Assembly: GCA_003345595.1 (NCBI GenBank)
Contig: PRDI01000113.1
Span: forward strand, 1 to 10,720
DNA from: Candidatus Thorarchaeota archaeon
GTDB taxonomy: Archaea > Asgardarchaeota > Thorarchaeia > Thorarchaeales > Thorarchaeaceae
Reading direction: 5' to 3'
DNA length: 10,720 nt
The notes under the pieces are model-generated. The model was not told the DNA's origin. It ran no database searches and saw only the letters and a list, made by a program, of their open reading frames with translations. Shown piece by piece: positions 1-10,720 of this stretch. A program made the position numbers and the translations under genes. Each line of letters begins with the position of its first letter. The first letter of the stretch is position 1.

Positions 1-1109
1 TCAACGCAAGAGGGACATGCCGAGATGACCCACTGGGCTTGTGTCTGCTCGATGTCTTTGAGCTTGAGCTTGTTTATGTTGAGAGCGAATTCGTTGTCAA
101 AGGCTCTAAGAACTCCACCTGAACCGCAACAGAAGCAGTTGTTCCTGTTATGGGGCAGCTCCTCGAGCGTCACTCCGGGCAGGTTCTCAAGCACCTTTCT
201 AGGTTCCTCGAAGAACCCCTCGTTTCGGCCAGCGTCACAGGGATCGTGAAACGTGACCGTAATGTCGAGTGGAGTCTGCAGGTTGTTCAGTTTACCACTG
301 TCACACAAACGAGCGAGGTAGGCTGCGCCATACTCCACTTCGAACGGATGCTCAATGTCAAGCAACTCATGGTACTCATGAGCCCACATCCTGTAGCAGC
401 CTGGACAGTTGGTTATCACTCGCTCCACCCCAAGCTGCTTGTACATCTCTATATTGTGCTCTGCCAGAGTCTTTGCAGTAGCGAAGTCACCGGTCATGAT
501 CATTGGAGCGCCACAGCACCACTCGTCTTGTCCAAGTACGGTGTACTCCTCACCGATTCTGTCCATCACAAGTGTCGTCGCAATTGTCGCTTGGATTGGG
601 ACTGCCTTGTAGGACGAAGAACATCCGAAGAAGAATGCTGTCTTTGCCTTTCGACCCACACTCCTTTGAAGAGAGTCCTCATCTGGGTGCCAGTATGACC
701 AGCCGTCTATTCTGTCGGTCTGCGCTTGGCCTTGGATATTGCTGGTCTTCAGCAGTGTGTCCCTTGCGGCCTCGAGGTTCTTGGGCCATAGCCCTCTTCT
801 GTAGAACTCCGCGCGCATCAGCTGGTACAGCTTGACAAACGGTATGTCCACTTGACAGACCTCTTCACAGCCACCGCACAGTGTACAGCCAAAGATACCG
901 TCCCTGAGTCCTTCGAGACCTTCAGAGGGCTTGAGTCGCCCCTGCATCAATGCCCGGGCTATGATCATCTTGCCCTTCCCAGAATAGCTGTCGAGGCGCT
1001 TCACCTTGTAGGTGGGACACGATCCATGCCCGACCTGACAGAAGCTGCACTGCGCACAGGTGAAGGGCATATTCTGGAGTCCATGTTTTTCAAGTAGAGG
1101 GAATCGCAT
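1..1109 (-). CDS. HdrD/GlcF-like Fe-S oxidoreductase (2x[4Fe-4S] ferredoxin domain + two CCG domains), 3' end truncated by window edge
   Basis: Manual translation of the reverse strand from ATG at 1109 is open to base 1: MRFPLLEKHGLQNMPFTCAQCSFCQVGHGSCPTY...CTLCGGCEEVCQVDIP...FFFGCSSS-x-EWCCGAP-x-TNCPGC...FHDPCDAGR-x-CFCCGSGG-x-SACPSCV. Both CCG domains fit C-x34/35-CC-x35/36-CxxC. GAGAGG SD-like sequence lies upstream. Absent from the ORF track because there is no stop codon in the window. Confidence 0.93.
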   Translation of the reverse strand, partial: MRFPLLEKHGLQNMPFTCAQCSFCQVGHGSCPTYKVKRLDSYSGKGKMIIARALMQGRLKPSEGLEGLRDGIFGCTLCGGCEEVCQVDIPFVKLYQLMRAEFYRRGLWPKNLEAARDTLLKTSNIQGQAQTDRIDGWSYWHPDEDSLQRSVGRKAKTAFFFGCSSSYKAVPIQATIATTLVMDRIGEEYTVLGQDEWCCGAPMIMTGDFATAKTLAEHNIEMYKQLGVERVITNCPGCYRMWAHEYHELLDIEHPFEVEYGAAYLARLCDSGKLNNLQTPLDITVTFHDPCDAGRNEGFFEEPRKVLENLPGVTLEELPHNRNNCFCCGSGGVLRAFDNEFALNINKLKLKDIEQTQAQWVISACPSCV

Positions 1110-1328
1110 TACATTCGGACCTCTCTGGTGTCACAAGAATGACTCTTGGGCTGCGATGCCGTCGAACCGTTCAGCGGTCATTCAGCTACAAATACCTTGG
1201 GTCTTGACTCATTGGGGTGTCGGTCGGGCTTCAGGAAGTGCCGCCTCGCTATGTTTTTATCCTGTACTCTTCCTCGGCCCTATCTGCTGGCCTTGGACAC
1301 CATTGCTTGCTCAGTGGAGAATGCCTAG

Positions 1329-3269
1329 ATGACACTGAAAAGCGAGAACGCAGCCGAACTCGCTGGGATCTTCGGCAACCGGCTCATCACTGCCAAACAT
1401 GAGCTGATTGTCCACTCGATGGACGTGGGGTCACTGCCGAAGCAAGTCGGCTGGCTCATGAACACAAACCCTGACGCAATGGTGCAGCCCGAGTCCGCTC
1501 AAGAGGTCAAATTGCTCTACGACTTCGCCCGTTCTCACAAGATTCCCGTCGTTCCTCGAGGGGCAGGGACCTCAGGCTACGGAGGCGCCATACCAAGGAA
1601 AGGCGGTATCGTTGTCGACATGCGCAGGATGGACCAGGTTCTGAGTGTCGACAAGGAATCGATGACTGCCGTGGTAGAGCCGGGCATCTCATGGGCAAAC
1701 CTGCAGTTGGAGCTGAACCGTCAAGGGCTAGATCTGAGATGCTATCCGTCGTCAGCAGTGTCTGCGACTATCGGAGGTTGGGTAGCGCAGGGCGGCGATG
1801 GGATTGGCTCGCTCAAGTATGGCAACATTAACAACAACGTAGTCGAACTCGAAGTTGTTCTGCCCGAAGGAAAGACAATCGTGACCAGAGACACGGACTT
1901 GTTCTGTGACACAGAGGGGATTCTAGGCATAGTCACGAAGGTCACACTCAAGGTCAAACCTCTGGTCCCAATCCGCTCCATTGTTGTGAGCTTCCCCGAG
2001 AACTACCTGATGGTCTTCGCGATTGAGAGGATAATGAAGGACGGACCCCTGCCGTTCACCATGAGATTCGAAGAGAGCAAGTATACAGACCTCAAGAAGA
2101 GGATCTGGGAGGGCAAGGAGCCATTCCCGTTCCCAGTGCATCACTGCGTCCTCTTGGTCGCCTATGAAGGGACAGACGAGGAAATTGCCCAGGGCTTCGA
2201 GATAGTCCGGGAAGTGTGTAAGGAACTGAAGGGGGCTGTTTATGATGAAAATGTCGCGCTCCACGAGTGGGAAGACAGGTTCTATCCCATGAGGATAAAG
2301 AAGATTGGCCCCACACTCGTTGTTGGTCAGGCATTTGCTCCGATAGAGAGCCTAGAAGCCATTCTAGACGATTTTCAGTTCGAACAAGCCTCTGCTCATG
2401 CGGGAATCGACGGTTACGTGACATCGAAGAATGGTGTCACAATGATGGGCTACTTCCTTGAGGACGAGCGGCGGCATTTCTTCATGCTGTCTTGGTCGCA
2501 GAGTTTTGTGATCTTCAAGATTGCACAGCGGCACGGAGGGCACCCTCATTCAACAGGAATCTGGCTGGCGAACTACGCACCGATATACTTCGGCACACGT
2601 CGCCTTGGCAGGATCAGAGCCGCCAAGCTGAAACTGGACCCGCTTGAGATCTCCAACCCGGGCAAGGTGTTTGCATACTGGCTTCCGCTGATTCTCAGAA
2701 TCGGCAAATACTTCATGTGGTTGGGATTCGATCTGTTCCGGAACGGGTTCGGTAGGATTGCGCCCATACTCTTGAAGTGGCTGCAGAACCTCCCGCCGGT
2801 AAAGTGGATTCTTCGTTGGGGTCGTGCGCACAGTCCTTGGCCGGTCCAATACGGTCTTGGGTGTTGCATGGTCGATGGTGCAGCTGCGGTCGCATCTCGT
2901 TGGGACCTTGAGAGGTTCGGCATGCTTCCACTGTTTGGCCCCCGTCAGTGTGATGTGCTGTGGGTATCGGGTTCCCTGACGAAGAAGATGGCTCCTCGTC
3001 TGCGGAGGATCTACGAGCAGATGCCCGACCCCAAGTTCGTCATTTCATTCGGACAGTGTGCTGCAAGCGGAGGTCTCTTCTGGGATGGATACTCACTCGT
3101 GACTCCTCCCGACAAGGTGGTGCCAATCGATGTGTATCTGCCAGGCTGTCCTCCGAAGCCTTCAGACTTCGTTAGGGCACACTTGATTCTTCAGAACAAG
3201 ATTCGTGCAGGGACAACCCACTGGCAGCTGAAACATGAGAATCAAGATGCGATGGGCGTGATAAAGTAG
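1329..3269 (+). CDS. Fusion protein: N-terminal FAD-binding oxidoreductase (GlcD/Dld, VAO/PCMH flavoprotein family) + C-terminal NADH:quinone oxidoreductase subunit B-like (NuoB) domain
   Basis: aa1-446: VPRGAGTSGYGG, VEPGI, TIGGWVAQGG..KYG, TEGILGIVT and the family-terminal NPGK. aa~493-630: WGRAHSPWPVQYGLGCC, DLERFG..GPRQCD, KMAPRLRRIYEQMPDPKFVISFGQCAASGG, DVYLPGCPP (Cys512, 513, 577, 607 = N2 ligand pattern). Single uninterrupted frame; GGAGA lies upstream of the ATG. Confidence 0.93.
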   Translation: MTLKSENAAELAGIFGNRLITAKHELIVHSMDVGSLPKQVGWLMNTNPDAMVQPESAQEVKLLYDFARSHKIPVVPRGAGTSGYGGAIPRKGGIVVDMRRMDQVLSVDKESMTAVVEPGISWANLQLELNRQGLDLRCYPSSAVSATIGGWVAQGGDGIGSLKYGNINNNVVELEVVLPEGKTIVTRDTDLFCDTEGILGIVTKVTLKVKPLVPIRSIVVSFPENYLMVFAIERIMKDGPLPFTMRFEESKYTDLKKRIWEGKEPFPFPVHHCVLLVAYEGTDEEIAQGFEIVREVCKELKGAVYDENVALHEWEDRFYPMRIKKIGPTLVVGQAFAPIESLEAILDDFQFEQASAHAGIDGYVTSKNGVTMMGYFLEDERRHFFMLSWSQSFVIFKIAQRHGGHPHSTGIWLANYAPIYFGTRRLGRIRAAKLKLDPLEISNPGKVFAYWLPLILRIGKYFMWLGFDLFRNGFGRIAPILLKWLQNLPPVKWILRWGRAHSPWPVQYGLGCCMVDGAAAVASRWDLERFGMLPLFGPRQCDVLWVSGSLTKKMAPRLRRIYEQMPDPKFVISFGQCAASGGLFWDGYSLVTPPDKVVPIDVYLPGCPPKPSDFVRAHLILQNKIRAGTTHWQLKHENQDAMGVIK

Positions 3270-3293: not shown

Positions 3294-3758
3294 ATGAGCC
3301 TAAGAGAAGACAGTGACCCATACTGCATGCTTTGGATTGGCGTTGCTCTGTTCGCTGCCTACTATTTCAATTTCGCATATTTAGGGCTCACGGTAACCGG
3401 TTATCTGAGTGCGATTGCCGCATACCTCCCCATTCTGCTAGTGCTGCCGATAGTAATAGTGTTCTTGTTCACTGGCTATTTGAAACCGCGTCGAGGTCGC
3501 TACAGACCAACAGTTCTTGCTTTGTCGATTTTCGCATCACTGTTTTACTTCATCATAGCATCGACCTTGCCGCAGGTAGGTAGTGTGGCACATGATTCAG
3601 TCTTCCTCTCATTCTGGGTGATTGGAGGCGCAATTCTAATCGCAGGCGCTTTTTCCGAAATGCCCTCTCTTGCAGAGAGTACTAGCCCGGGAATGCTGGA
3701 CGTCAGTTCTCTTCAATACAAGACTGACGAAGATGCCACCGCCACTGAAAGCAGCTGA
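3294..3758 (+). CDS. Hypothetical integral membrane protein (about 4 TM helices, acidic C-terminal tail)
   Basis: Four hydrophobic stretches; strong AGGAGG SD at 3281-3286, 7 nt before the ATG; 24 nt after the stop of the fusion gene. Confidence 0.75.
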   Translation: MSLREDSDPYCMLWIGVALFAAYYFNFAYLGLTVTGYLSAIAAYLPILLVLPIVIVFLFTGYLKPRRGRYRPTVLALSIFASLFYFIIASTLPQVGSVAHDSVFLSFWVIGGAILIAGAFSEMPSLAESTSPGMLDVSSLQYKTDEDATATESS

Positions 3759-3985: not shown

Positions 3986-4780
3986 ATGGAGTGGAAGCCG
4001 ATGGCGTCTGTTAGTATCAAGCATCTTGTGAAGAGTTACGGCAGCTTCGTTGCTGTGAATGATTTGTCATTTGACGTACGGGAGGGTGAAGTCTATGGAC
4101 TCCTTGGACCCAATGGTGCTGGCAAATCGACGACCCTGAAGGTCCTGATGGGCCTGCTGGATCCAGACTCGGGGACTTCCACCGTCTTCGGCATGGACTC
4201 TGGCGCGAGTCCTGTCGAGGTGAAGAAAAGAGTCGGCTATGTCCCTGAGGAAATCTCACTTTACGAGTCGCTCACGGCGAGAGAGCTCATTGACTTTGTC
4301 GCTTCCATAAGAGGGCTCAGCCCGGAAACTGCAGCAAGGCGTGCGTCCGAAATGTCCAAGGCACTGGACTTCGTCCAACAGTATGACAAGACCGTTGTGA
4401 CTCTCTCACATGGGAACAAGCAGAAACTGATGTTGATCATAGCCATGCTTCATGCCCCAGACTTGCTCATACTTGACGAGCCTTTCACCGGACTTGACGT
4501 CCGGACTGCTCGGATTATGAAGGATGTCATCAAGATCCATGTGGAAGGAGGCGGTTCTGCACTACTCAGTACGCACATAATGGAGATGGCTGAGGGACTG
4601 TGCAATAGGGTAGGAATCATCGATCATGGAGTCATGGTCGCTGAGGGCACGCTGGACGAGCTGGGCAGGCAGGCGCAGATTGAGGGCGCCACACTTGAGA
4701 AACTGTTCCTCAAACTCACTGGAGCGGAGGGAGAGGTAGAAGAGGGCGTGGAAACTCTCCGGGAGGCTTTGGGTGATTGA
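3986..4780 (+). CDS. ABC transporter ATP-binding protein (ABC-2/CcmA-like exporter ATPase); true start may be ATG 4001
   Basis: Walker A GPNGAGKST, Q-loop region GYVPE, signature LSHGNKQK, Walker B LLILDEP, H-loop STH, C-terminal TLEKLFLKLT. Confidence 0.95.
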   Translation: MEWKPMASVSIKHLVKSYGSFVAVNDLSFDVREGEVYGLLGPNGAGKSTTLKVLMGLLDPDSGTSTVFGMDSGASPVEVKKRVGYVPEEISLYESLTARELIDFVASIRGLSPETAARRASEMSKALDFVQQYDKTVVTLSHGNKQKLMLIIAMLHAPDLLILDEPFTGLDVRTARIMKDVIKIHVEGGGSALLSTHIMEMAEGLCNRVGIIDHGVMVAEGTLDELGRQAQIEGATLEKLFLKLTGAEGEVEEGVETLREALGD

Positions 4781-6420
4781 ATCTCGGTAAGAAGTGGCAG
4801 ATAGCTGGAGCCGTTTCAACGGAGTTGCGGTTTCAGGGCTACCTTGACTCCAACCCAATGGGACTCTCTCGCATCAAAGAGAACCCAGAGCGGATTATGA
4901 GGCAGATGAAGAGTGCAAATACGATGAGCGGACTGGTTTCAGCACTGTTCATTTCGACCCTGGGAATCTCGTCTATTGCGGCGGCTTACATCAACCTAGG
5001 CAGTGGACCATTCCACCTTCGTATGGCTCTATCCATTTCCATGTTCCTTGGTCTTACATTCATACTTATGTTCTTCATGAACCTCATGGCGACGACAGGA
5101 TTCTTCGGTGCGAGTGCCATGCGCCTCTTGACCATCCTGCCTTTCTCACGAAGCGACCTCGAAAACATCATCCTTCTGGCATTTGGCAGAGTCTTCATTG
5201 CTCCGGCTGTGATAATCAATGTGGTCTTCCCTCTCATCTGCTTCGTGCTGTTGGGACCGCTTATTGGTCTAGTTGCACTAGCGGGTTGTCTGATGACCAC
5301 GTCATTGTCCATTGGAGCACTGGTCAAGGTTTCCAAGTGGTTCTACGTGAAATCACATTCCTCAACTAATTCCAAAGCATCAACCATCATCCGTATCGCG
5401 GCAGGACTGGGAATTGTCGTTGGAATGTTCGCTGCCTATAGTATGACGGGATTCATACCGACGATCGTGCAGTTACTAGTGCAGCTGTCATCGAGCTTCG
5501 GTGAGATTGCAGTATCGATGCTTGCTGTTGTGTTTCCCTTCAGTCTTGGCATCCTCGCCGCCGCGCTCATCCCAGAAACGAGCTTTTCGTCAGTGACAGT
5601 CGCGGTTGCGGCCATCTCTTCGATGATTTATGCAGCTCTCGCGTATATTACCTACTTACGTAGTGGAAAGGCACTCAGATCAGTGGCCCTTGGAGGAGTC
5701 ACAACAAGTGGCGCCGAGATTCGACGCGACATAAGCGTTGACATTCTCAGCCCTATAAGTGCGATAATCCGGAAGGACATGAAGCTGGCTACACGTAACC
5801 TCGGGTCAATAATGATCATCGTGATGCCGCTCTTGATGGTCTTCTCAGTCTATCCTATTGTGGCTTTCACCAGTGAGGGGTTTCTGAGGAGTTCTTCAGC
5901 ACTACTTGGAACAGGATACATAACTACTTTCACGGGAATCTCTCTCATCGGGCTCTTGTCACTAGACTCTCAGGGCGCCTCCCTCCACGAGGGGCTTCCT
6001 ATAGACAGCAGAATGATACTGAGTGCAAAGGTCAGGGTGTTTGCTGTGCAGTATGCATTGGCCATGAGTGTGCTTGTGATTTGGTTTGCGCTTGCCAGCC
6101 CCATAACACTGCTTCTAGTTCTGCTGCCAATCATCCAGTTCCCCACGGCATATGCCATCGGATACCTGGTTGCCGCAACGATATATCACATCAGAGGGGG
6201 TGGCCGAGTCACCGCTGTCAACATCATAGGCGACCAAGCTATCGTTCTCCTCTCAATGGCTCTGACTGCGGCAATAGCTGGCGCTCCACTGGGAGCATAT
6301 GCACTGATTCTTCTGGCAACAAGAGGAAATCATCTCATGGCGCTTGGTATGCAGCTTGCGGTTGTCCTGCTCGAATTCCTGTTTGCGCGGCAGATTACTC
6401 CTAGGTTGCTTAAGGGTTAA
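4777..6420 (+). CDS. ABC exporter permease (multi-pass membrane protein)
   Basis: TTG start overlaps the ATPase stop (TTGA). More than 10 hydrophobic segments in two halves, each with an LP motif (LLTILPFSR; LHEGLPIDSR), and IIRKDMKLATRN at the start of the second half, typical of ABC-2-associated permeases. Confidence 0.85.
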   Translation: MNLGKKWQIAGAVSTELRFQGYLDSNPMGLSRIKENPERIMRQMKSANTMSGLVSALFISTLGISSIAAAYINLGSGPFHLRMALSISMFLGLTFILMFFMNLMATTGFFGASAMRLLTILPFSRSDLENIILLAFGRVFIAPAVIINVVFPLICFVLLGPLIGLVALAGCLMTTSLSIGALVKVSKWFYVKSHSSTNSKASTIIRIAAGLGIVVGMFAAYSMTGFIPTIVQLLVQLSSSFGEIAVSMLAVVFPFSLGILAAALIPETSFSSVTVAVAAISSMIYAALAYITYLRSGKALRSVALGGVTTSGAEIRRDISVDILSPISAIIRKDMKLATRNLGSIMIIVMPLLMVFSVYPIVAFTSEGFLRSSSALLGTGYITTFTGISLIGLLSLDSQGASLHEGLPIDSRMILSAKVRVFAVQYALAMSVLVIWFALASPITLLLVLLPIIQFPTAYAIGYLVAATIYHIRGGGRVTAVNIIGDQAIVLLSMALTAAIAGAPLGAYALILLATRGNHLMALGMQLAVVLLEFLFARQITPRLLKG

Positions 6421-6507: not shown

Positions 6508-6858
6508 CTATGGCTCCAAAAGCCACCCGACCGACGCCGTCACTAGGAGAACTGCGAAGGCGATCCAGAGGAAGGCGATGCCGCCAAGATAGCCTGGAAA
6601 CAGGCTGACGTCCAGATAGCCCTGAATTCCTCCAAGTATGGCTGAAATGAATGTGAGCGCCATGCGCCTCGGACGGGTTCTTGCGTATGCCACGGCGGCC
6701 GTCGCCAGTACGAAGAGAATGCAGTCCACGAGAAGAAGTGGGCGGAGAAATGGCTCTGCGACTGGACTCATCGTCCACAGCACGTAGACCAGAATAAGGC
6801 CAAGTCCGATAGCTAGGACAGAGTAGTAGACCAGCACGATCTTTGTCTTGGGGGCCAA
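6508..6858 (-). CDS. Hypothetical small membrane protein (about 4 TM)
   Basis: ORF track gives 6508-6897. The likelier start is TTG at 6858, with an AGGTGA SD 5 nt upstream. Four hydrophobic segments separated by short basic loops (RTRPRR). Confidence 0.7.
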   Translation of the reverse strand: MAPKTKIVLVYYSVLAIGLGLILVYVLWTMSPVAEPFLRPLLLVDCILFVLATAAVAYARTRPRRMALTFISAILGGIQGYLDVSLFPGYLGGIAFLWIAFAVLLVTASVGWLLEP

Positions 6859-6910
6859 GCGAATCACCTGAGGTCTGGCTTCAGATATCCGAGACAAGCC
6901 GTCGTGGTAC

Positions 6911-7073: not shown

Positions 7074-7514
7074 ATGAGGTTGTTCATTGACTTCGTCCCT
7101 GTGTTGGTGTGGGCCCTCCTCGCCATTGCACTCGTTGCCATAATGCTCTTGGCATCGTGGGTGTTGCGGCCTCACATCCTTCAGAACTCGGACAAGACCT
7201 CCTCATACGAGTGCGGAGAGGAGCCGGTGGGCACTGCCGCCGTTGCATTTCCGTACAGCTACTTCCTCTATACAGTCCTGTTTGTCATCGTCGACGTAAT
7301 GGGTGCATTTCTTTGGCTATTGTCAGTATCTCCGCTCAGGATTTCTGAAGTTATCGTCTGGCAGACATTTGTCTTCGTGGTGCTCATAGTCCTCGGGATT
7401 GCGTTTGCCCTACACATGCTGCCTCAGACGTTGCTCGACGGAAAAGAAACCCTCAGACTGTACCGTGAGAGCAAAGCGGCCCGTGAACAGCACGATTCGG
7501 GGGTGCAGGTGTGA
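7074..7514 (+). CDS. nuoA: NADH:quinone oxidoreductase subunit A-like
   Basis: Three TM helices, loop KTSSYECGEEPVG, YFLYTVLFVIVDV. Start set at ATG 7074 (TTG 7080 also possible). The 6843 start in the ORF track overlaps the divergent gene and promoter. Confidence 0.9.
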   Translation: MRLFIDFVPVLVWALLAIALVAIMLLASWVLRPHILQNSDKTSSYECGEEPVGTAAVAFPYSYFLYTVLFVIVDVMGAFLWLLSVSPLRISEVIVWQTFVFVVLIVLGIAFALHMLPQTLLDGKETLRLYRESKAAREQHDSGVQV

Positions 7515-8170
7515 TGTTGATGCAGGAATTCGAGGCACTGTTTGAAGAGGTCGAGTTCGTTGTGATTGCAGTCGTCGTGCTGCTGCTAGCATATCTTGCA
7601 CTCGAGCACAGAGAGATCGTCTACTCCGTTTTCTTCTTTGGATTCATGGCCGCTAGTGTAGCGGGCTTCTACCTTCTCTTGGAAGCACCTTTCATCGCCG
7701 GTATGCAGATTGCAGTGTACACCGGCGGAATAAGCGCTCTGATCATCTTCGGTGTTCTTCTTCTGCCGCGGGCGCAGGGCTCTTCATTAGAGGTACTACA
7801 GACCCCGCGAATGCGAAGGATAGGCATGATTCTCTCCGCGACTGTCATGACACTCTCAGCAGTCCTCGCTCTGGTTTTTCCTTGGTCTCAGTCCTTTCCG
7901 GCTGACCGTCCGCCTATCGCTCAAGACCTTGCAGGTCTGGCAGCTTGGCTCTGGGGAGAGCATGGGATCTATGTCCAGCTTGTTGCGCTCATGATGCTGA
8001 CTGCCGTCATCGGGTCTGTCGCAATCCTGAAGATGGAGAAGACAGAGAAGCTCAGTCCTCTGAAGGACCGACCCGGACTCGGGTCGCGGGGCAAGGAGAA
8101 CGAAGGCGCTTCCGAAACTAAGGCCCATGATGAGGAGCACCAAGATGCCAAGGAGGCCGGCACCCAATGA
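7511..8170 (+). CDS. nuoJ: NADH:quinone oxidoreductase subunit J-like
   Basis: IVYSVFF..AGFYLLLEAPFIAGMQIAVYTGGISALIIFGVLL signature, five TM helices, GTGA overlap with nuoA. Confidence 0.92.
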   Translation: MMLMQEFEALFEEVEFVVIAVVVLLLAYLALEHREIVYSVFFFGFMAASVAGFYLLLEAPFIAGMQIAVYTGGISALIIFGVLLLPRAQGSSLEVLQTPRMRRIGMILSATVMTLSAVLALVFPWSQSFPADRPPIAQDLAGLAAWLWGEHGIYVQLVALMMLTAVIGSVAILKMEKTEKLSPLKDRPGLGSRGKENEGASETKAHDEEHQDAKEAGTQ

Positions 8171-8487
8171 TACCATTGAGCTGGTACTTGGTCGTGGCCT
8201 TCGTGATGATAGGGCTGGGCGCCTACGGTATGGTGACGAAGAGAAACCTGATTCGAATTCTCATCGGTGCGGAGATAATGGGCAATGGCGTTAACATAGC
8301 GCTGGTCGCCTTCTCGCTTTACAATCCGGTCTTCTCATTCACTGGTCAGGGACTGATTATCCTCGTGATATCAGTGACTGCGGCACATACTGCATTGGCG
8401 TTGGTGTTGATGCTCATGTATCAGACCCGGTACTCGACCGTGGACCTCGGCGAGCCTGTCACTGTGGAGGCACGGAAGAGTGACTGA
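8167..8487 (+). CDS. nuoK: NADH:quinone oxidoreductase subunit K-like
   Basis: GLGAYGMVTKRNLIRILIGAEIMGNGVNIALVAF, GQ motif, three TM helices, ATGA overlap with nuoJ. Confidence 0.92.
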   Translation: MIPLSWYLVVAFVMIGLGAYGMVTKRNLIRILIGAEIMGNGVNIALVAFSLYNPVFSFTGQGLIILVISVTAAHTALALVLMLMYQTRYSTVDLGEPVTVEARKSD

Positions 8488-9019
8488 GCCAACGACAGTC
8501 CCTCAAGGGATGTCCCCGTCAACACTGGCAAAGCACGTGATTGACAGGCACCCGGACGTTTCTGCGAAGGAGCCAGAAGGGAACCGGATTGAGCTGATTG
8601 TGCCGGCTGAGAGGGTTCGTGATGTTGTTGGAATGATAAGCGAGCTTGTGCCCGACGCTCTTCCAGAGTCTCTGTTTGGCGTAGATCTCGGCAATGACCG
8701 ATACGAGGTGATGTACTTCTTCTGGTCACACTCGAACTTGATGTTGTGTCAGCTGCGTGTCACACTTGAGGGCGCCAGTCCAGAGGTTGACTCTGTCTGG
8801 GACATTTTCCCGGGGATGGAGTGGCACGAACGAGAGACCCATGAGATGTTCGGAATCGGGTTCAAGGGTAATCCCGACCTAAGACTGCTCCTGCTTCCCG
8901 ATGAGCTTGACGGCAAGTATCCGCTCAGGAAGAGCTTCAAGACCGACAGGAGTCGACTTGCTGAGTCAGGACTGGCAGAGACCAGACCTACCTCAAAGGA
9001 GAGTGAGACCTCAGGTTGA
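8480..9019 (+). CDS. nuoC: NADH:quinone oxidoreductase subunit C-like
   Basis: GVD..RYEVMY, VDSVWDIFPGMEWHERETHEMFGIGFKGNPDLRLLLLP..GKYPLRKSF signature; GTG start overlaps nuoK by 8 nt. Confidence 0.93.
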   Translation: MTEPTTVPQGMSPSTLAKHVIDRHPDVSAKEPEGNRIELIVPAERVRDVVGMISELVPDALPESLFGVDLGNDRYEVMYFFWSHSNLMLCQLRVTLEGASPEVDSVWDIFPGMEWHERETHEMFGIGFKGNPDLRLLLLPDELDGKYPLRKSFKTDRSRLAESGLAETRPTSKESETSG

Positions 9020-10152
9020 GTGGCAACATTCTCGACGAGGCTGTGGAGGTATGGTTCGGTCCTCAGCACGTTTCAGCTCACGGGTGGGCCACAAAGCTGA
9101 CCATCGTTGGTGACTTCATCGTTGAATGTGACCCTAACGCAGGCTACTTCCATCGGTCAGCAGAGAAGTGTCTTGAGTTCCGCGACTTCCGTCAAGGTGC
9201 GCTCATCATGGAAAGGCTCTGCATGCTTGAAGCATTCCTCGCGGAGTACCCTTACGTGAAGGCGGTTGAGAAGATCGCTGCGCTGGAGGTACCCGAGAGG
9301 GCCAAGGTCATGAGGACAATCATGATGGAGGCCAGCAGGATTCATAGCCTTCAGTTCTGGTGGGGACAATTCGCGGCGGAGCTTGGTCTTTTCGCAATGC
9401 TGCTATGGCCTTGGGTGGACCGTGAGTACTTCCTAGACTCCTTTGAGGAACTGACTGGCTCCAGACATGCTGTGTCGTACAACACCCCGGGAGGAGTCAA
9501 GTATGATTTCACCGAAAAGTCGGTGAAGATGCTCCTGCGTGCACTGGACAGAATCGAGTATCGAATACCTACGTTCCGTGACATGATTTTGAAAAGCCCG
9601 ACTTTCAAGTTGCGGACGAGGAACGTGGGTACATTCACTGCCGAGCAGGGACTGAAATGGGGTCTAAGCGGACCAAACATCAAAGCATGCGGCATTCCTA
9701 TGGACCTTCGCAAGGACGACCCTGACCCCGACCTTGCATACAACATGTGTGACTGGGAGGTCCCGACCACTCAGAGTGAGGAACATCCTGGGGGAAGTGA
9801 TGCCTACGACAGGATGGTCCAGAGATTCAGGGAGATTGAAACATCAATCAGCATTATCAGGCAACTGCTCCCTCAGGTGCCTGAAGGGCCAATAGTCGAT
9901 CCCAAGGCAAGGGCCAAGACCAACAGACTCCCGGCAGGAGAGGCGTATGGCCGCGTCGAGGGCACACGTGGGATAACGACACTCTGGCTGAAGACTGCGG
10001 ACAAGGCACAGACTCCCTATCGAGCCAAGATAAGGGGACCATGCTTCTCCTCATACTATTCTCTCAAGCATCTTGTTCCGGGCTCCACATTTGCAGACTT
10101 CATTGTGATATTCGGAAGCTTGGATCCATATCCTGGGTGGTGGGACAGATGA
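9016..10152 (+). CDS. nuoD: NADH:quinone oxidoreductase subunit D-like / MBS(MbxL)-like large subunit without NiFe site
   Basis: FGPQHVSAHG, GYFHRSAEK, EVPERAK..RTIMMEASRI, FEELTGSR...PGGV, GEAYGRVEGTRG, PYRAKIRGP, terminal SLDPYPGWWDR. No CxxC pairs. TTGA overlap with nuoC. Confidence 0.92.
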   Translation: MSGNILDEAVEVWFGPQHVSAHGWATKLTIVGDFIVECDPNAGYFHRSAEKCLEFRDFRQGALIMERLCMLEAFLAEYPYVKAVEKIAALEVPERAKVMRTIMMEASRIHSLQFWWGQFAAELGLFAMLLWPWVDREYFLDSFEELTGSRHAVSYNTPGGVKYDFTEKSVKMLLRALDRIEYRIPTFRDMILKSPTFKLRTRNVGTFTAEQGLKWGLSGPNIKACGIPMDLRKDDPDPDLAYNMCDWEVPTTQSEEHPGGSDAYDRMVQRFREIETSISIIRQLLPQVPEGPIVDPKARAKTNRLPAGEAYGRVEGTRGITTLWLKTADKAQTPYRAKIRGPCFSSYYSLKHLVPGSTFADFIVIFGSLDPYPGWWDR

Positions 10153-10720
10153 TGGGAGGCGGCATCTTGCTCCAGATCGACTTCATTGCATGGCTCAGGG
10201 GGATACCGGATTGGCTGTATGGTGTGATCAGATGGATCTATGGAATCATCTACGCCCTGTTTACTTGGGTATGGGGCCTGTTCGTCTGGATCTGGGCAGT
10301 CGTCATAGACAGCTTTTGGTTCCTGTTCAAGGCAATCCTGTTTCCCGGCCTGATCTTTGTGGTGTTGGGAATCATATTCGCAGTCTGGTTCACTCGAAAG
10401 ACATGGGGACGCGTACAGGCAAGGCGTGGACCGTTCCACATAGGAAAGTACGGAGGCCTTCAGCTCTTCGCGGATGCAATCAAGCTTGTAGCGAAGGAAA
10501 CGATAATTCCCGACAAGGCTAAGCGGTGGATGTACAGGGTGCTTCCGTCCCTTCTCCTCATTGCGGTTCTGATCCCATTTGCGTTCATACCTTGGGACAA
10601 CAACTCGTTCATTGCCGACCTGTCTGTGAGCCTTGTGCTGACCTTTGCATTCCTCACAGTCGTGCCTGTGGTTTCAGTGCTGGCAGGTTGGACCAGTGGA
10701 TCGAAGTACACTCTCATTGG
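10149..10720 (+). CDS. nuoH: NADH:quinone oxidoreductase subunit H-like, truncated by window edge
   Basis: Manual translation is open to the end: ...FPGLIF..VWFTRKTWGRVQARRGPFHIGKYGGLQLFADAIKLVAKETIIP..FAFIPW..ADLSVS..LAGWTSGSKYTLIG. Start is ATG 10149 (ATGA overlap) or TTG 10167 (GGAGG at 10155-10159). Not in the ORF track. Confidence 0.93.
   Translation, partial: MMGGGILLQIDFIAWLRGIPDWLYGVIRWIYGIIYALFTWVWGLFVWIWAVVIDSFWFLFKAILFPGLIFVVLGIIFAVWFTRKTWGRVQARRGPFHIGKYGGLQLFADAIKLVAKETIIPDKAKRWMYRVLPSLLLIAVLIPFAFIPWDNNSFIADLSVSLVLTFAFLTVVPVVSVLAGWTSGSKYTLI
10191..10307 (+). repeat. Degenerate 7-aa (21-nt) Trp repeat in the NuoH N-terminal extension
   Basis: WLRGIPD / WLYGVIR / WIYGIIY / (ALFT) / WVWGLFV / WIWAVVI. 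Confidence 0.6.

Follow-up and report, generated by a model that had tools for sequence, protein, structure and literature searches.

The 10,720-nucleotide (nt) contig PRDI01000113.1 of a Candidatus Thorarchaeota archaeon (assembly GCA_003345595.1), referred to here in its whole length as the window, carries a gene in which an oxidoreductase linked to flavin adenine dinucleotide (FAD) continues in frame, through a short amphipathic tail, into NuoB, the complex I subunit whose four cysteines ligate the iron-sulfur (Fe-S) cluster N2. This fusion is real and conserved, and it is the own and only NuoB of the ion pump encoded beside it. It is apparently undescribed in the literature. The fusion adds a variant within the complex I superfamily, of which the gene architecture is established.

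The gene (Table 1) is a single stop-free frame, and Pfam recognizes three domains on its 646-residue product: FAD_binding_4 (residues 48-186, E 3e-41), FAD-oxidase_C (216-447, E 1e-11) and Oxidored_q6 (513-617, E 7e-24; score 84.4 against the PF01058 cut-off of 27). A preliminary description of this DNA had read a full FAD oxidoreductase as far as an NPGK motif, followed without a stop by a complete NuoB. Both the reading and the placing of the motif are exact: NPGK, the usual end of the FAD-oxidase C domain, occupies residues 443-446 at nt 2655-2666. At the start of the gene, orthologue N-termini align at the same position. A NuoB translated separately from an internal start was also considered and rejected because the orthologue alignment contains no conserved Met there, Met463 being Leu in two orthologues and Met514 lying after the CC motif. 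Database records label the fusion protein only ‘NuoB’.

The C-terminal domain passes two NCBIfam NuoB models (NF005012, 180.5 against a cut-off of 116; TIGR01957, 173.5 against 142.7). The N2 ligands are Cys512 and Cys513 in GLGCC (nt 2853-2867), Cys577 in GQCAASGG and Cys607 in PGCPP; every aligned orthologue retains the CC, GQC and PGCPP motifs. Among solved structures, the best match is Nqo6 of Thermus thermophilus (E 4.9e-44, aligned from Nqo6 residue 26), then NdhK and PSST, whereas MbsJ (1.8e-31) and MbhJ (5e-28) match this part much more weakly. The earlier assignment to a complex I-type NuoB with all four ligands is thus borne out. So is, within the class, the distinction made between the tandem CC and the CxxC of group 4 hydrogenase small subunits: a true group 4 [NiFe]-hydrogenase of the sister genus g14 has a small subunit that reads GSCNGCD at the first ligand site.

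To follow the spread of the fusion, a protein search covered 5.8 billion proteins and an exhaustive search 1.84 billion representatives. The same three-domain architecture recurs in 46 protein clusters of 72-86% identity, nearly all 644-667 amino acids (aa) long with a few shortened by contig ends, drawn from NCBI, JGI, ENA and Logan assemblies with contigs of up to 3.16 Mb. The named sources are Thorarchaeota, except one labelled Hodarchaeota. With the tail and NuoB as query, the fused form was found in 59 of 87 species-level genomes of the class, including a closed genome of 3.16 Mb (G003); it occurs in genera g1-g12 (12 of 17) and none was found in g13-g17. Recurrence on this scale rules out chance. 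Neither search returned a FAD enzyme fused to NuoB in other lineages, the word-index search being limited in sensitivity. Among proteins of 355-1131 aa, the NuoB part retrieved only this clade and one intein-bearing MbhJ, and the exhaustive search gave one fused cluster, the next match being a free NuoB of 185 aa with 61% identity. Within the 150 nearest representatives, the remaining long NuoB proteins are NuoA-B, B-C or B-C-D fusions or carry inserts, and none includes a FAD enzyme. No paper describing a FAD-NuoB fusion was found, in agreement with the initial statement that no characterised GlcD-NuoB fusion was known to its author.

An artefact, whether by misassembly or by a sequencing error joining two genes, has a practically negligible probability and was rejected. 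The window is indeed a short (10.7 kb) metagenomic contig, and in one genome of the same genus (G026) a 1-nt deletion at about codon 435 splits the gene just before NPGK, leaving a tail plus NuoB frame of 266 aa open; this deletion could be a sequencing error or a recent break. But the architecture is identical in the 46 clusters from four sources and in the 59 species genomes, some on long contigs, and the junction is highly conserved at the protein level. The idea that relatives would encode two separate genes also fails here: at least 56 of them have the fused form, in part truncated by contig ends, and the single deletion is confined to G026. The recurrence in independent assemblies takes the place of reads spanning the junction. 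As for other shorter frames, those in G037, G049 and G064 are truncated by contig ends, and those in G046 and G061 have runs of N at the site.

The fusion stands in for the nuoB gene of a pump whose other genes lie nearby. In the window, nuo genes follow in the order A-J-K-C-D-H with overlapping stops and starts, without nuoB, the slot between K and C being empty. In the closed genome and ten further genera, the order is a gene for an iron-sulfur protein with CCG domains (divergent or within 5 kb), the fusion, a gene for a protein with four transmembrane (TM) helices, a small membrane protein on the opposite strand, nuoA-J-K-C-D-H-I and four antiporter-like genes. The fusion is syntenic with the nuo core genes in 10 of 11 genera, and shares their contig in the eleventh. 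No NuoEFG genes are present in the operon, nor was a Complex1_51K (NuoF) match obtained in the source genome (G000, 83% complete) or in the closed one. A second, free NuoB elsewhere in the source genome was looked for and rejected: its other three Oxidored_q6 genes encode small subunits of group 3 hydrogenases, beside MvhD/FlpD-type or NAD(P)-binding/FeS genes and a NiFe large subunit. The closed genome gave one NuoB-type match and one NuoH, and the fusion set is the only complex I-type NuoB/NuoH set found in it.

Outside the fusion-bearing genera, the outgroups display the ancestral states. In G004 and G104 the order is J-K-B-C-D-H-I and NuoB is free. In G400 (L044, G400:C52, and G400:C168), the nearest outgroup, the operon J-K-C-D-H-I is already without nuoB and nuoA is divergent; there are two NuoD copies (52-53% identical), and the free NuoB of 189 aa, 64% identical, lies on another contig, its match holding two stop codons. 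The closest free NuoB in databases (P0122) follows nuoA on a short contig, the next gene encoding a radical-SAM protein. The fusion, its cognate NuoD type and the four-TM protein have g1-g12 as their common genus range.

The flavin part belongs to the VAO/GlcD superfamily. Its top Foldseek match is mouse LDHD (8JD*; TM-score 0.81-0.83 by target, E 3e-29), then LctD of Acetobacterium woodii and AGPS. At the sequence level, only the FAD-binding domain aligns well, its FAD-binding motifs being intact, and equivalog scores are far below their cut-offs (TIGR00387 glcD, 144.5 against 567.9; PRK11230, 100.2 against 897; YdiJ, 76.6 against 1350). In the D-lactate dehydrogenase (D-LDH) family, the reference metal and catalytic motifs are the HxxDGNxH region and the E-H of GG..EHGxG. 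A wider alignment gives as marks of the present subfamily EWxERFYPMR, ‘EG’ for the HxxDGNxH region and GG(R/K)xYSxG; the fusion reads GGHPHSTG, in which H-P-H-S-T-G stands opposite the H-G-I-G region of LctD and the H-H-H loop of ADPS. The Glu that we take to precede that His in the D-LDH family (E-H-G-x-G) has a Pro at its placed position in the fusion. The name ‘GlcD/D-lactate dehydrogenase’ first given to this part is therefore right for superfamily and fold, but not beyond: the cap domain is without the metal and catalytic motifs of the family, and the score stays far below the glcD cut-off. The subfamily also includes bacterial single-chain FAD+Fer4+CCG proteins of 871-1051 aa. The gene context, examined for clues to the substrate, singles out none: the neighbouring genes encode PNPOx-like proteins and further FAD/CCG pairs in genomes with the fusion, and UbiA, polyprenyl synthase and geranylgeranyl reductase in those with an unfused enzyme.

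The probable partner of the flavin part is the CCG protein encoded divergently upstream. Pfam finds in it two CCG domains (E 1.5e-33) and Fer4_8, while its best NCBIfam matches, TfrB (160.9 against a cut-off of 385), GlpC and LdhH, are all below cut-off. It is 73% identical to a 408-aa orthologue in the closed genome. Such an orthologue lies at most 5 kb from the fusion in 11 of 11 genera inspected. Moreover, over its whole length the protein aligns with the C-terminal half of one of the bacterial FAD+Fer4+CCG chains (E 4e-51). This conserved gene pair, together with its fusion into a single chain in bacteria (a Rosetta-stone-type argument), suggests that FAD domain and CCG protein function as a single enzyme. 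The source genome has 8 FAD and 7 CCG paralogues. In the closed genome, an island upstream of the CCG gene (L005:1-9808) encodes further FAD_binding_4/CCG pairs together with an amine-oxidase-like flavoprotein and a pair of PNPOx-like proteins, of which one has DUF7530.

In an AlphaFold2 (AF2) model of mean predicted local distance difference test score (pLDDT) 82.9 and predicted TM-score 0.70, the tail between the flavin part and NuoB forms helices at residues 451-472, 474-486 and 489-500 (pLDDT 57-69), the third continuing into the first helix of NuoB. The hydrophobic moment is 0.53-0.66 and no segment is of transmembrane grade. Over 13 sequences from 11 genera, the tail shows 80% pairwise identity and 54% invariant columns, compared with 72-75% identity for the FAD domains and a mean of 89% for NuoB. 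The closest unfused orthologues, P0050 and P0051 of g14 (498 and 499 aa, 57% identical), carry a tail of about 50 residues after NPGK and end at PPLKW(I/L), where NuoB starts with W-G-R-x-x-S-P-W-P. A linker created by the fusion event was thus rejected, and the tail must be older than the fusion since unfused orthologues already carry it. Distant Thorarchaeial paralogues of 573 aa have two real TM helices at the tail position; together with the tail, these helices at the same place indicate that this FAD subfamily is generally membrane-anchored. We suppose that the tail rests on the membrane at its cytoplasmic face, where NuoB, NuoH and NuoA meet. The position of the first NuoB helix in solved complexes would put the flavoenzyme at the N2 end, and the flavin itself may reasonably be placed near that end from the position of the NuoB N-terminus.

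In g14, the unfused gene follows its CCG partner and the membrane complex of these genomes is a true [NiFe] group 4 hydrogenase. The unfused enzyme, as far as gene content tells, can work at the membrane without the pump described here. Because unfused orthologues keep the tail in genomes without this pump, a diffusible partner is favoured over obligatory wiring. In the same genus (L006, L007, 5000-11500), the orthologue and its CCG partner adjoin genes for geranylgeranyl reductase, polyprenyl synthase and UbiA; this neighbourhood could reflect a link to isoprenoid lipid or carrier chemistry, or be coincidence.

These observations bear on the improbable case that the fusion is a tether without redox coupling, in which an AGPS-like lipid enzyme or a structural or assembly domain would use a membrane-surface site beside NuoB. 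The HPH motif does align with the HHH loop of alkyl-DHAP (dihydroxyacetone phosphate) synthase, a non-redox flavoenzyme, AGPS is among the top fold matches, and the prenyltransferase UbiA, polyprenyl synthase and geranylgeranyl reductase genes adjoin the unfused orthologues. However, an electron-transfer partner with CCG and Fer4 domains is always present and single-chain FAD+Fer4+CCG relatives exist; in addition, 12 genera have kept the fusion, and all three of its parts are under strong constraint.

The catalytic pocket of the pump itself was examined in NuoD. Its best solved match is MbsL (6u8y_L, E 1.3e-54), marginally ahead of Nqo4 (E 9.5e-54). With reference to T. thermophilus numbering, the equivalent of His38 is kept (H22), that of Tyr87 is Met70, and Cys69/Glu72 form a C-x-x-E as in MbsL; the C-terminal motif is without Cys. 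The large subunit reads ERLCMLE and DPYPGWWDR and thus has no NiFe RxCGxC/DPCxxC motifs, whereas the true group 4 enzyme of g14 displays RICGICSNCH and DPCxSCTDR. These NuoD pocket motifs are invariant in 13 genomes of 11 genera. Outgroups with free NuoB have a similar pocket (RISMLE, RACFLE, RSCFID), and G004 and G104 retain the C-terminal Cys. The pocket therefore predates the fusion.

Taken together, we tentatively favour, with a probability that we put somewhat short of even, a FAD/CCG redox enzyme that is permanently attached next to the N2 end of a pump dependent on ferredoxin and exchanges electrons with it through a small shared carrier. The tail would keep the FAD enzyme, the CCG partner and probably the four-TM protein close to the N2 or ‘quinone-site’ end. 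NuoI would be the docking site of reduced ferredoxin, as is the case for other complexes without an NADH module (PMC7374477, PMC9723677), and the carrier, a lipophilic quinone- or phenazine-like molecule or a thiol/disulfide couple, would be cycled locally. The net reaction would couple ion translocation to electron exchange between ferredoxin and the flavoenzyme's organic substrate, probably a couple resembling 2-oxo/2-hydroxy acids. It would be reversible, so that the membrane potential could push substrate-level electrons up to ferredoxin. Direct transfer from FAD to N2 is unlikely, since NuoD, NuoH and NuoA are present at normal length around N2 and, as judged from structure 4HEA, seem to leave no space beside it for a protein-bound cluster. 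A shared carrier is favoured because N2 is likely enclosed, the unfused enzyme seems to work without the pump and the paralogues are membrane-anchored. Precedents are the Fpo-like complex with HdrD proposed for Methanomassiliicoccales (PMC7374477) and the Dld-HdrD pairs of Asgard archaea (PMC9723677).

Several points weigh against this proposal. The domain arrangement around the tail is of only moderate confidence, with the pLDDT of 57-69 given above, and the catalytic motifs of the FAD domain differ from those of characterised D-LDH/GlcD enzymes. Ferredoxin as donor is presumed by analogy. NuoD is without the quinone-binding Tyr. In the source and closed genomes, MqnA/D were not found and MenB/MenD were not above cut-off, so that neither the futalosine nor the classical menaquinone pathway was detected. 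A quinone carrier is therefore unsupported, and a thiol or other non-quinone carrier would be pure conjecture.

The main rival is a direct wire, for which we see a real if minority chance. Here the clusters of the CCG protein (two [4Fe-4S] and two CCG-type sites) would bridge FAD to the distal cluster of NuoI or to a remodelled N2 pocket, with no diffusible carrier. In that case the FAD/CCG pair would serve, in place of quinone, as a true built-in module through which electrons leave or enter, and the whole would be an energy-converting ferredoxin:substrate oxidoreductase. It is consistent with a fusion point only 12-16 residues upstream of the N2 tandem Cys, with a tail more conserved than the FAD domain, and with the same missing Tyr and undetected menaquinone pathway that trouble a quinone carrier. 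The bacterial single-chain relatives carry their Fe-S module C-terminal to the FAD domain, at the position of NuoB here, and Asgard MBH-like complexes with a peripheral heterodisulfide reductase (Hdr) domain are reported in a preprint (bioRxiv 10.1101/2024.07.04.601786). Yet NuoD, NuoH, NuoA and NuoC are of normal size, so N2 should be buried; a pocket of the S/C-M/F-x-E type is also found in free-NuoB outgroups and hence is not specific to the fusion; and unfused orthologues appear to function without this pump.

The preliminary description had proposed an acceptor-side module or a short-cut electron input. The acceptor-side idea survives, as does reversible operation, while a short cut in which a 2-hydroxyacid-level donor drives four pump modules is energetically implausible; a flow from ferredoxin to the substrate, or the reverse flow powered by membrane potential, is a better fit. 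In such a donor-side scheme, a 2-hydroxyacid would be oxidised by the flavoenzyme and its electrons would pass via N2 to quinone, driving ion pumping. The lactate/pyruvate couple lies at about -190 mV, and transfer to a menaquinone-level acceptor yields too little energy for four antiporter-like modules. Moreover, no quinone pathway was found and the quinone Tyr is missing, the catalytic motifs of 2-hydroxyacid dehydrogenases are absent, and NuoI, where ferredoxin normally enters, would lose its role. Although the fold is nearest to D-lactate dehydrogenases, and GlcD/GlcF- and Dld/HdrD-type enzymes are usually read as dehydrogenases (PMC9723677), we regard this scheme as decidedly improbable.

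Two further membrane proteins accompany the fusion (Table 1). The four-TM protein has an invariant N-terminal LREDxDxYC motif, an acidic C-tail and about four TM helices. Its gene abuts or overlaps the fusion stop in 10 genera and its genus range, g1-g12, equals that of the fusion; in G010 it is found at the nuo operon instead, the fusion lying 23 kb away. An atlas search with this protein gave only sub-threshold, unnamed look-alikes. It is a candidate for an extra membrane subunit of the complex; co-folding with tail plus NuoB, NuoH and NuoA scored 0.00 and is evidence neither way. Orthologues of the small membrane protein upstream of nuoA were found by tblastn at the same place in every locus examined.

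Table 1. Features of the window; nt positions refer to the window, residues to the 646-residue fusion product.
Feature	Position	Strand	Remarks
HdrD/GlcF/TfrB-like iron-sulfur protein (Fer4 dicluster + 2 CCG)	3..1109	-	Divergent from fusion; first 369 of ~408 aa, C-terminus cut by contig end
Intergenic region between divergent CCG and fusion genes	1110..1328		GGAG ~10 nt 5′ of ATG 1329
Fusion gene	1329..3269	+	Stop-free open reading frame (ORF), 646 aa: FAD enzyme + amphipathic tail + NuoB
FAD-linked oxidoreductase part, VAO/GlcD superfamily	1329..2669 (residues 1-447)	+	Pfam, AF2, Foldseek
Tail, three predicted amphipathic helices	2670..2813 (residues 448-495)	+	AF2, hydrophobic moment, alignment
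NuoB/Nqo6-type domain	2814..3266 (residues 496-646)	+	Pfam, NCBIfam, PDB alignment
Four-TM protein, 154 aa, no known family	3294..3758	+	No Pfam/NCBIfam match
Small membrane protein, 129-aa ORF	6508..6897	-	No Pfam match; divergent, just upstream of nuoA
nuoA	7074..7514	+	Pfam Oxidored_q4; start probably ATG 7074, not TTG 6843 (orthologue alignment)
nuoJ	7511..8170	+	Pfam Oxidored_q3
nuoK	8167..8487	+	Pfam Oxidored_q2; directly overlaps nuoC
nuoC	8480..9019	+	Pfam Complex1_30kDa
nuoD	9016..10152	+	NCBIfam NuoD 315.9, below cut-off 360
nuoH, 5′ part	10149..10720	+	PF00146; cut by contig end

Between the four-TM gene and the nuo operon, the window carries on the plus strand (3986-6420) genes for an ATP-binding cassette (ABC) transporter ATPase of 264 aa and a multi-TM protein of 547 aa without family match; among the compared loci this insertion is found in this genome only, other genera having different insertions or none. 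Beyond the window, the four antiporter-like genes of the closed genome (L005:17837-21941) and their equivalents in L026-L035 and L042 encode proteins of about 511, 753, 420 and 420 aa, the 753-aa one being of NuoL type and of unusual length, which points to an extra module in the pump. In the source genome, an MvhG-like hydrogenase small subunit (L003, G000:C16:13193-13660) reads through one in-frame TAG, and a CCG paralogue of G048 also holds one TAG. Stop-codon recoding, sequencing error or a real split are possible; for some Asgard lineages, a report of pyrrolysine exists (PMC9723677).

Evolution in the complex I superfamily is known to proceed by exchange of end modules (NuoEFG, FpoF, the NiFe site, the sulfane site), and joining a flavoenzyme to NuoB itself would be a novel solution. 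Here too, for the first time, a covalent link connects a redox module of CCG/HdrD type to such a pump, the connection in the Fpo-like/HdrD idea for Methanomassiliicoccales being hypothetical. One may go further and propose a new class of energy-converting enzyme, a ferredoxin:organic-acid (or ferredoxin:disulfide) oxidoreductase in which the NuoB-attached flavoenzyme/HdrD-like module replaces quinone at the N2 end of a four-pump machine; this we consider doubtful. If true, membrane potential would, with the machine run backwards, lift electrons from a lactate-level substrate to ferredoxin. A fermentative or syntrophic archaeon could then oxidise such substrates to the level of H2 or CO2 reduction without quinones or cytochromes. 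The hosts are Thorarchaeia, abundant Asgard archaea of sediments, whose energy metabolism bears on syntrophy models of eukaryote origins.

The fusion shares major features with canonical NuoB/Nqo6/PSST (NDUFS7)/NdhK: it answers to the same family models, carries four Cys with a tandem CC and is encoded beside nuoA/C/D/H/I/J/K and antiporter-like genes. Unlike them, it has a 495-residue N-terminal addition, its gene has left the operon slot, and its partner NuoD is without the quinone Tyr. With LDHD (8JD*), LctD (7QH2), GlcD and Dld-II/YdiJ-like enzymes, it has in common the two-domain VAO/GlcD fold, the FAD-binding motifs and a GlcF/HdrD-like CCG partner, but the catalytic regions are divergent, a membrane tail follows at the C-terminus and NuoB is attached. 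TfrAB sets a precedent, as its CCG protein mediates electron transfer between thiols and an organic-acid-reducing flavoprotein. TfrB is the best NCBIfam match of the CCG protein here, although below the equivalog cut-off, whereas the flavoprotein is of the VAO/GlcD family and not of the fumarate reductase family.

Among energy-converting complexes, MBS of Pyrococcus furiosus (6U8Y) and MBH (6CFW) offer a ferredoxin donor logic, and NuoD displays the MbsL-type R-x-C-x-x-E where others have NiFe CxxC or the quinone D-Y. The small subunit is nevertheless nearer to Nqo6, the C-terminal Cys of MbsL is absent, and the membrane arm is Nuo-type (A, H, J, K and a 753-aa L-type protein) with four antiporter-like subunits. 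In Asgard archaea, Dld-HdrD pairs and Nuo without NuoEFG are known (PMC9723677). For other Asgard classes, Appler et al. describe in their preprint (bioRxiv 10.1101/2024.07.04.601786) MBH-like complexes that have a heterodisulfide-reductase domain at the periphery. These are likewise Asgard members of the complex I/group 4 hydrogenase superfamily with an acquired Hdr-type module; however, they are real [NiFe]-hydrogenases (groups 4l, 4q) of other classes, and the matched passages of the preprint contain no FAD-NuoB fusion. For the Methanomassiliicoccales, an Fpo-like complex without FpoF together with HdrD has been proposed to act as a ferredoxin:heterodisulfide oxidoreductase that converts energy (PMC7374477). 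There too, a pump without NADH or F420 module, presumably fed by ferredoxin, is thought to partner an HdrD-type CCG protein, with no cytochrome b anchor. Thorarchaeia are not methanogens and CoM-S-S-CoB (the coenzyme M-coenzyme B heterodisulfide) is not expected as substrate. Moreover, the association in Methanomassiliicoccales is hypothesised and involves no fusion, whereas in Thorarchaeia NuoB and the flavoenzyme that partners the CCG protein form one covalent chain.

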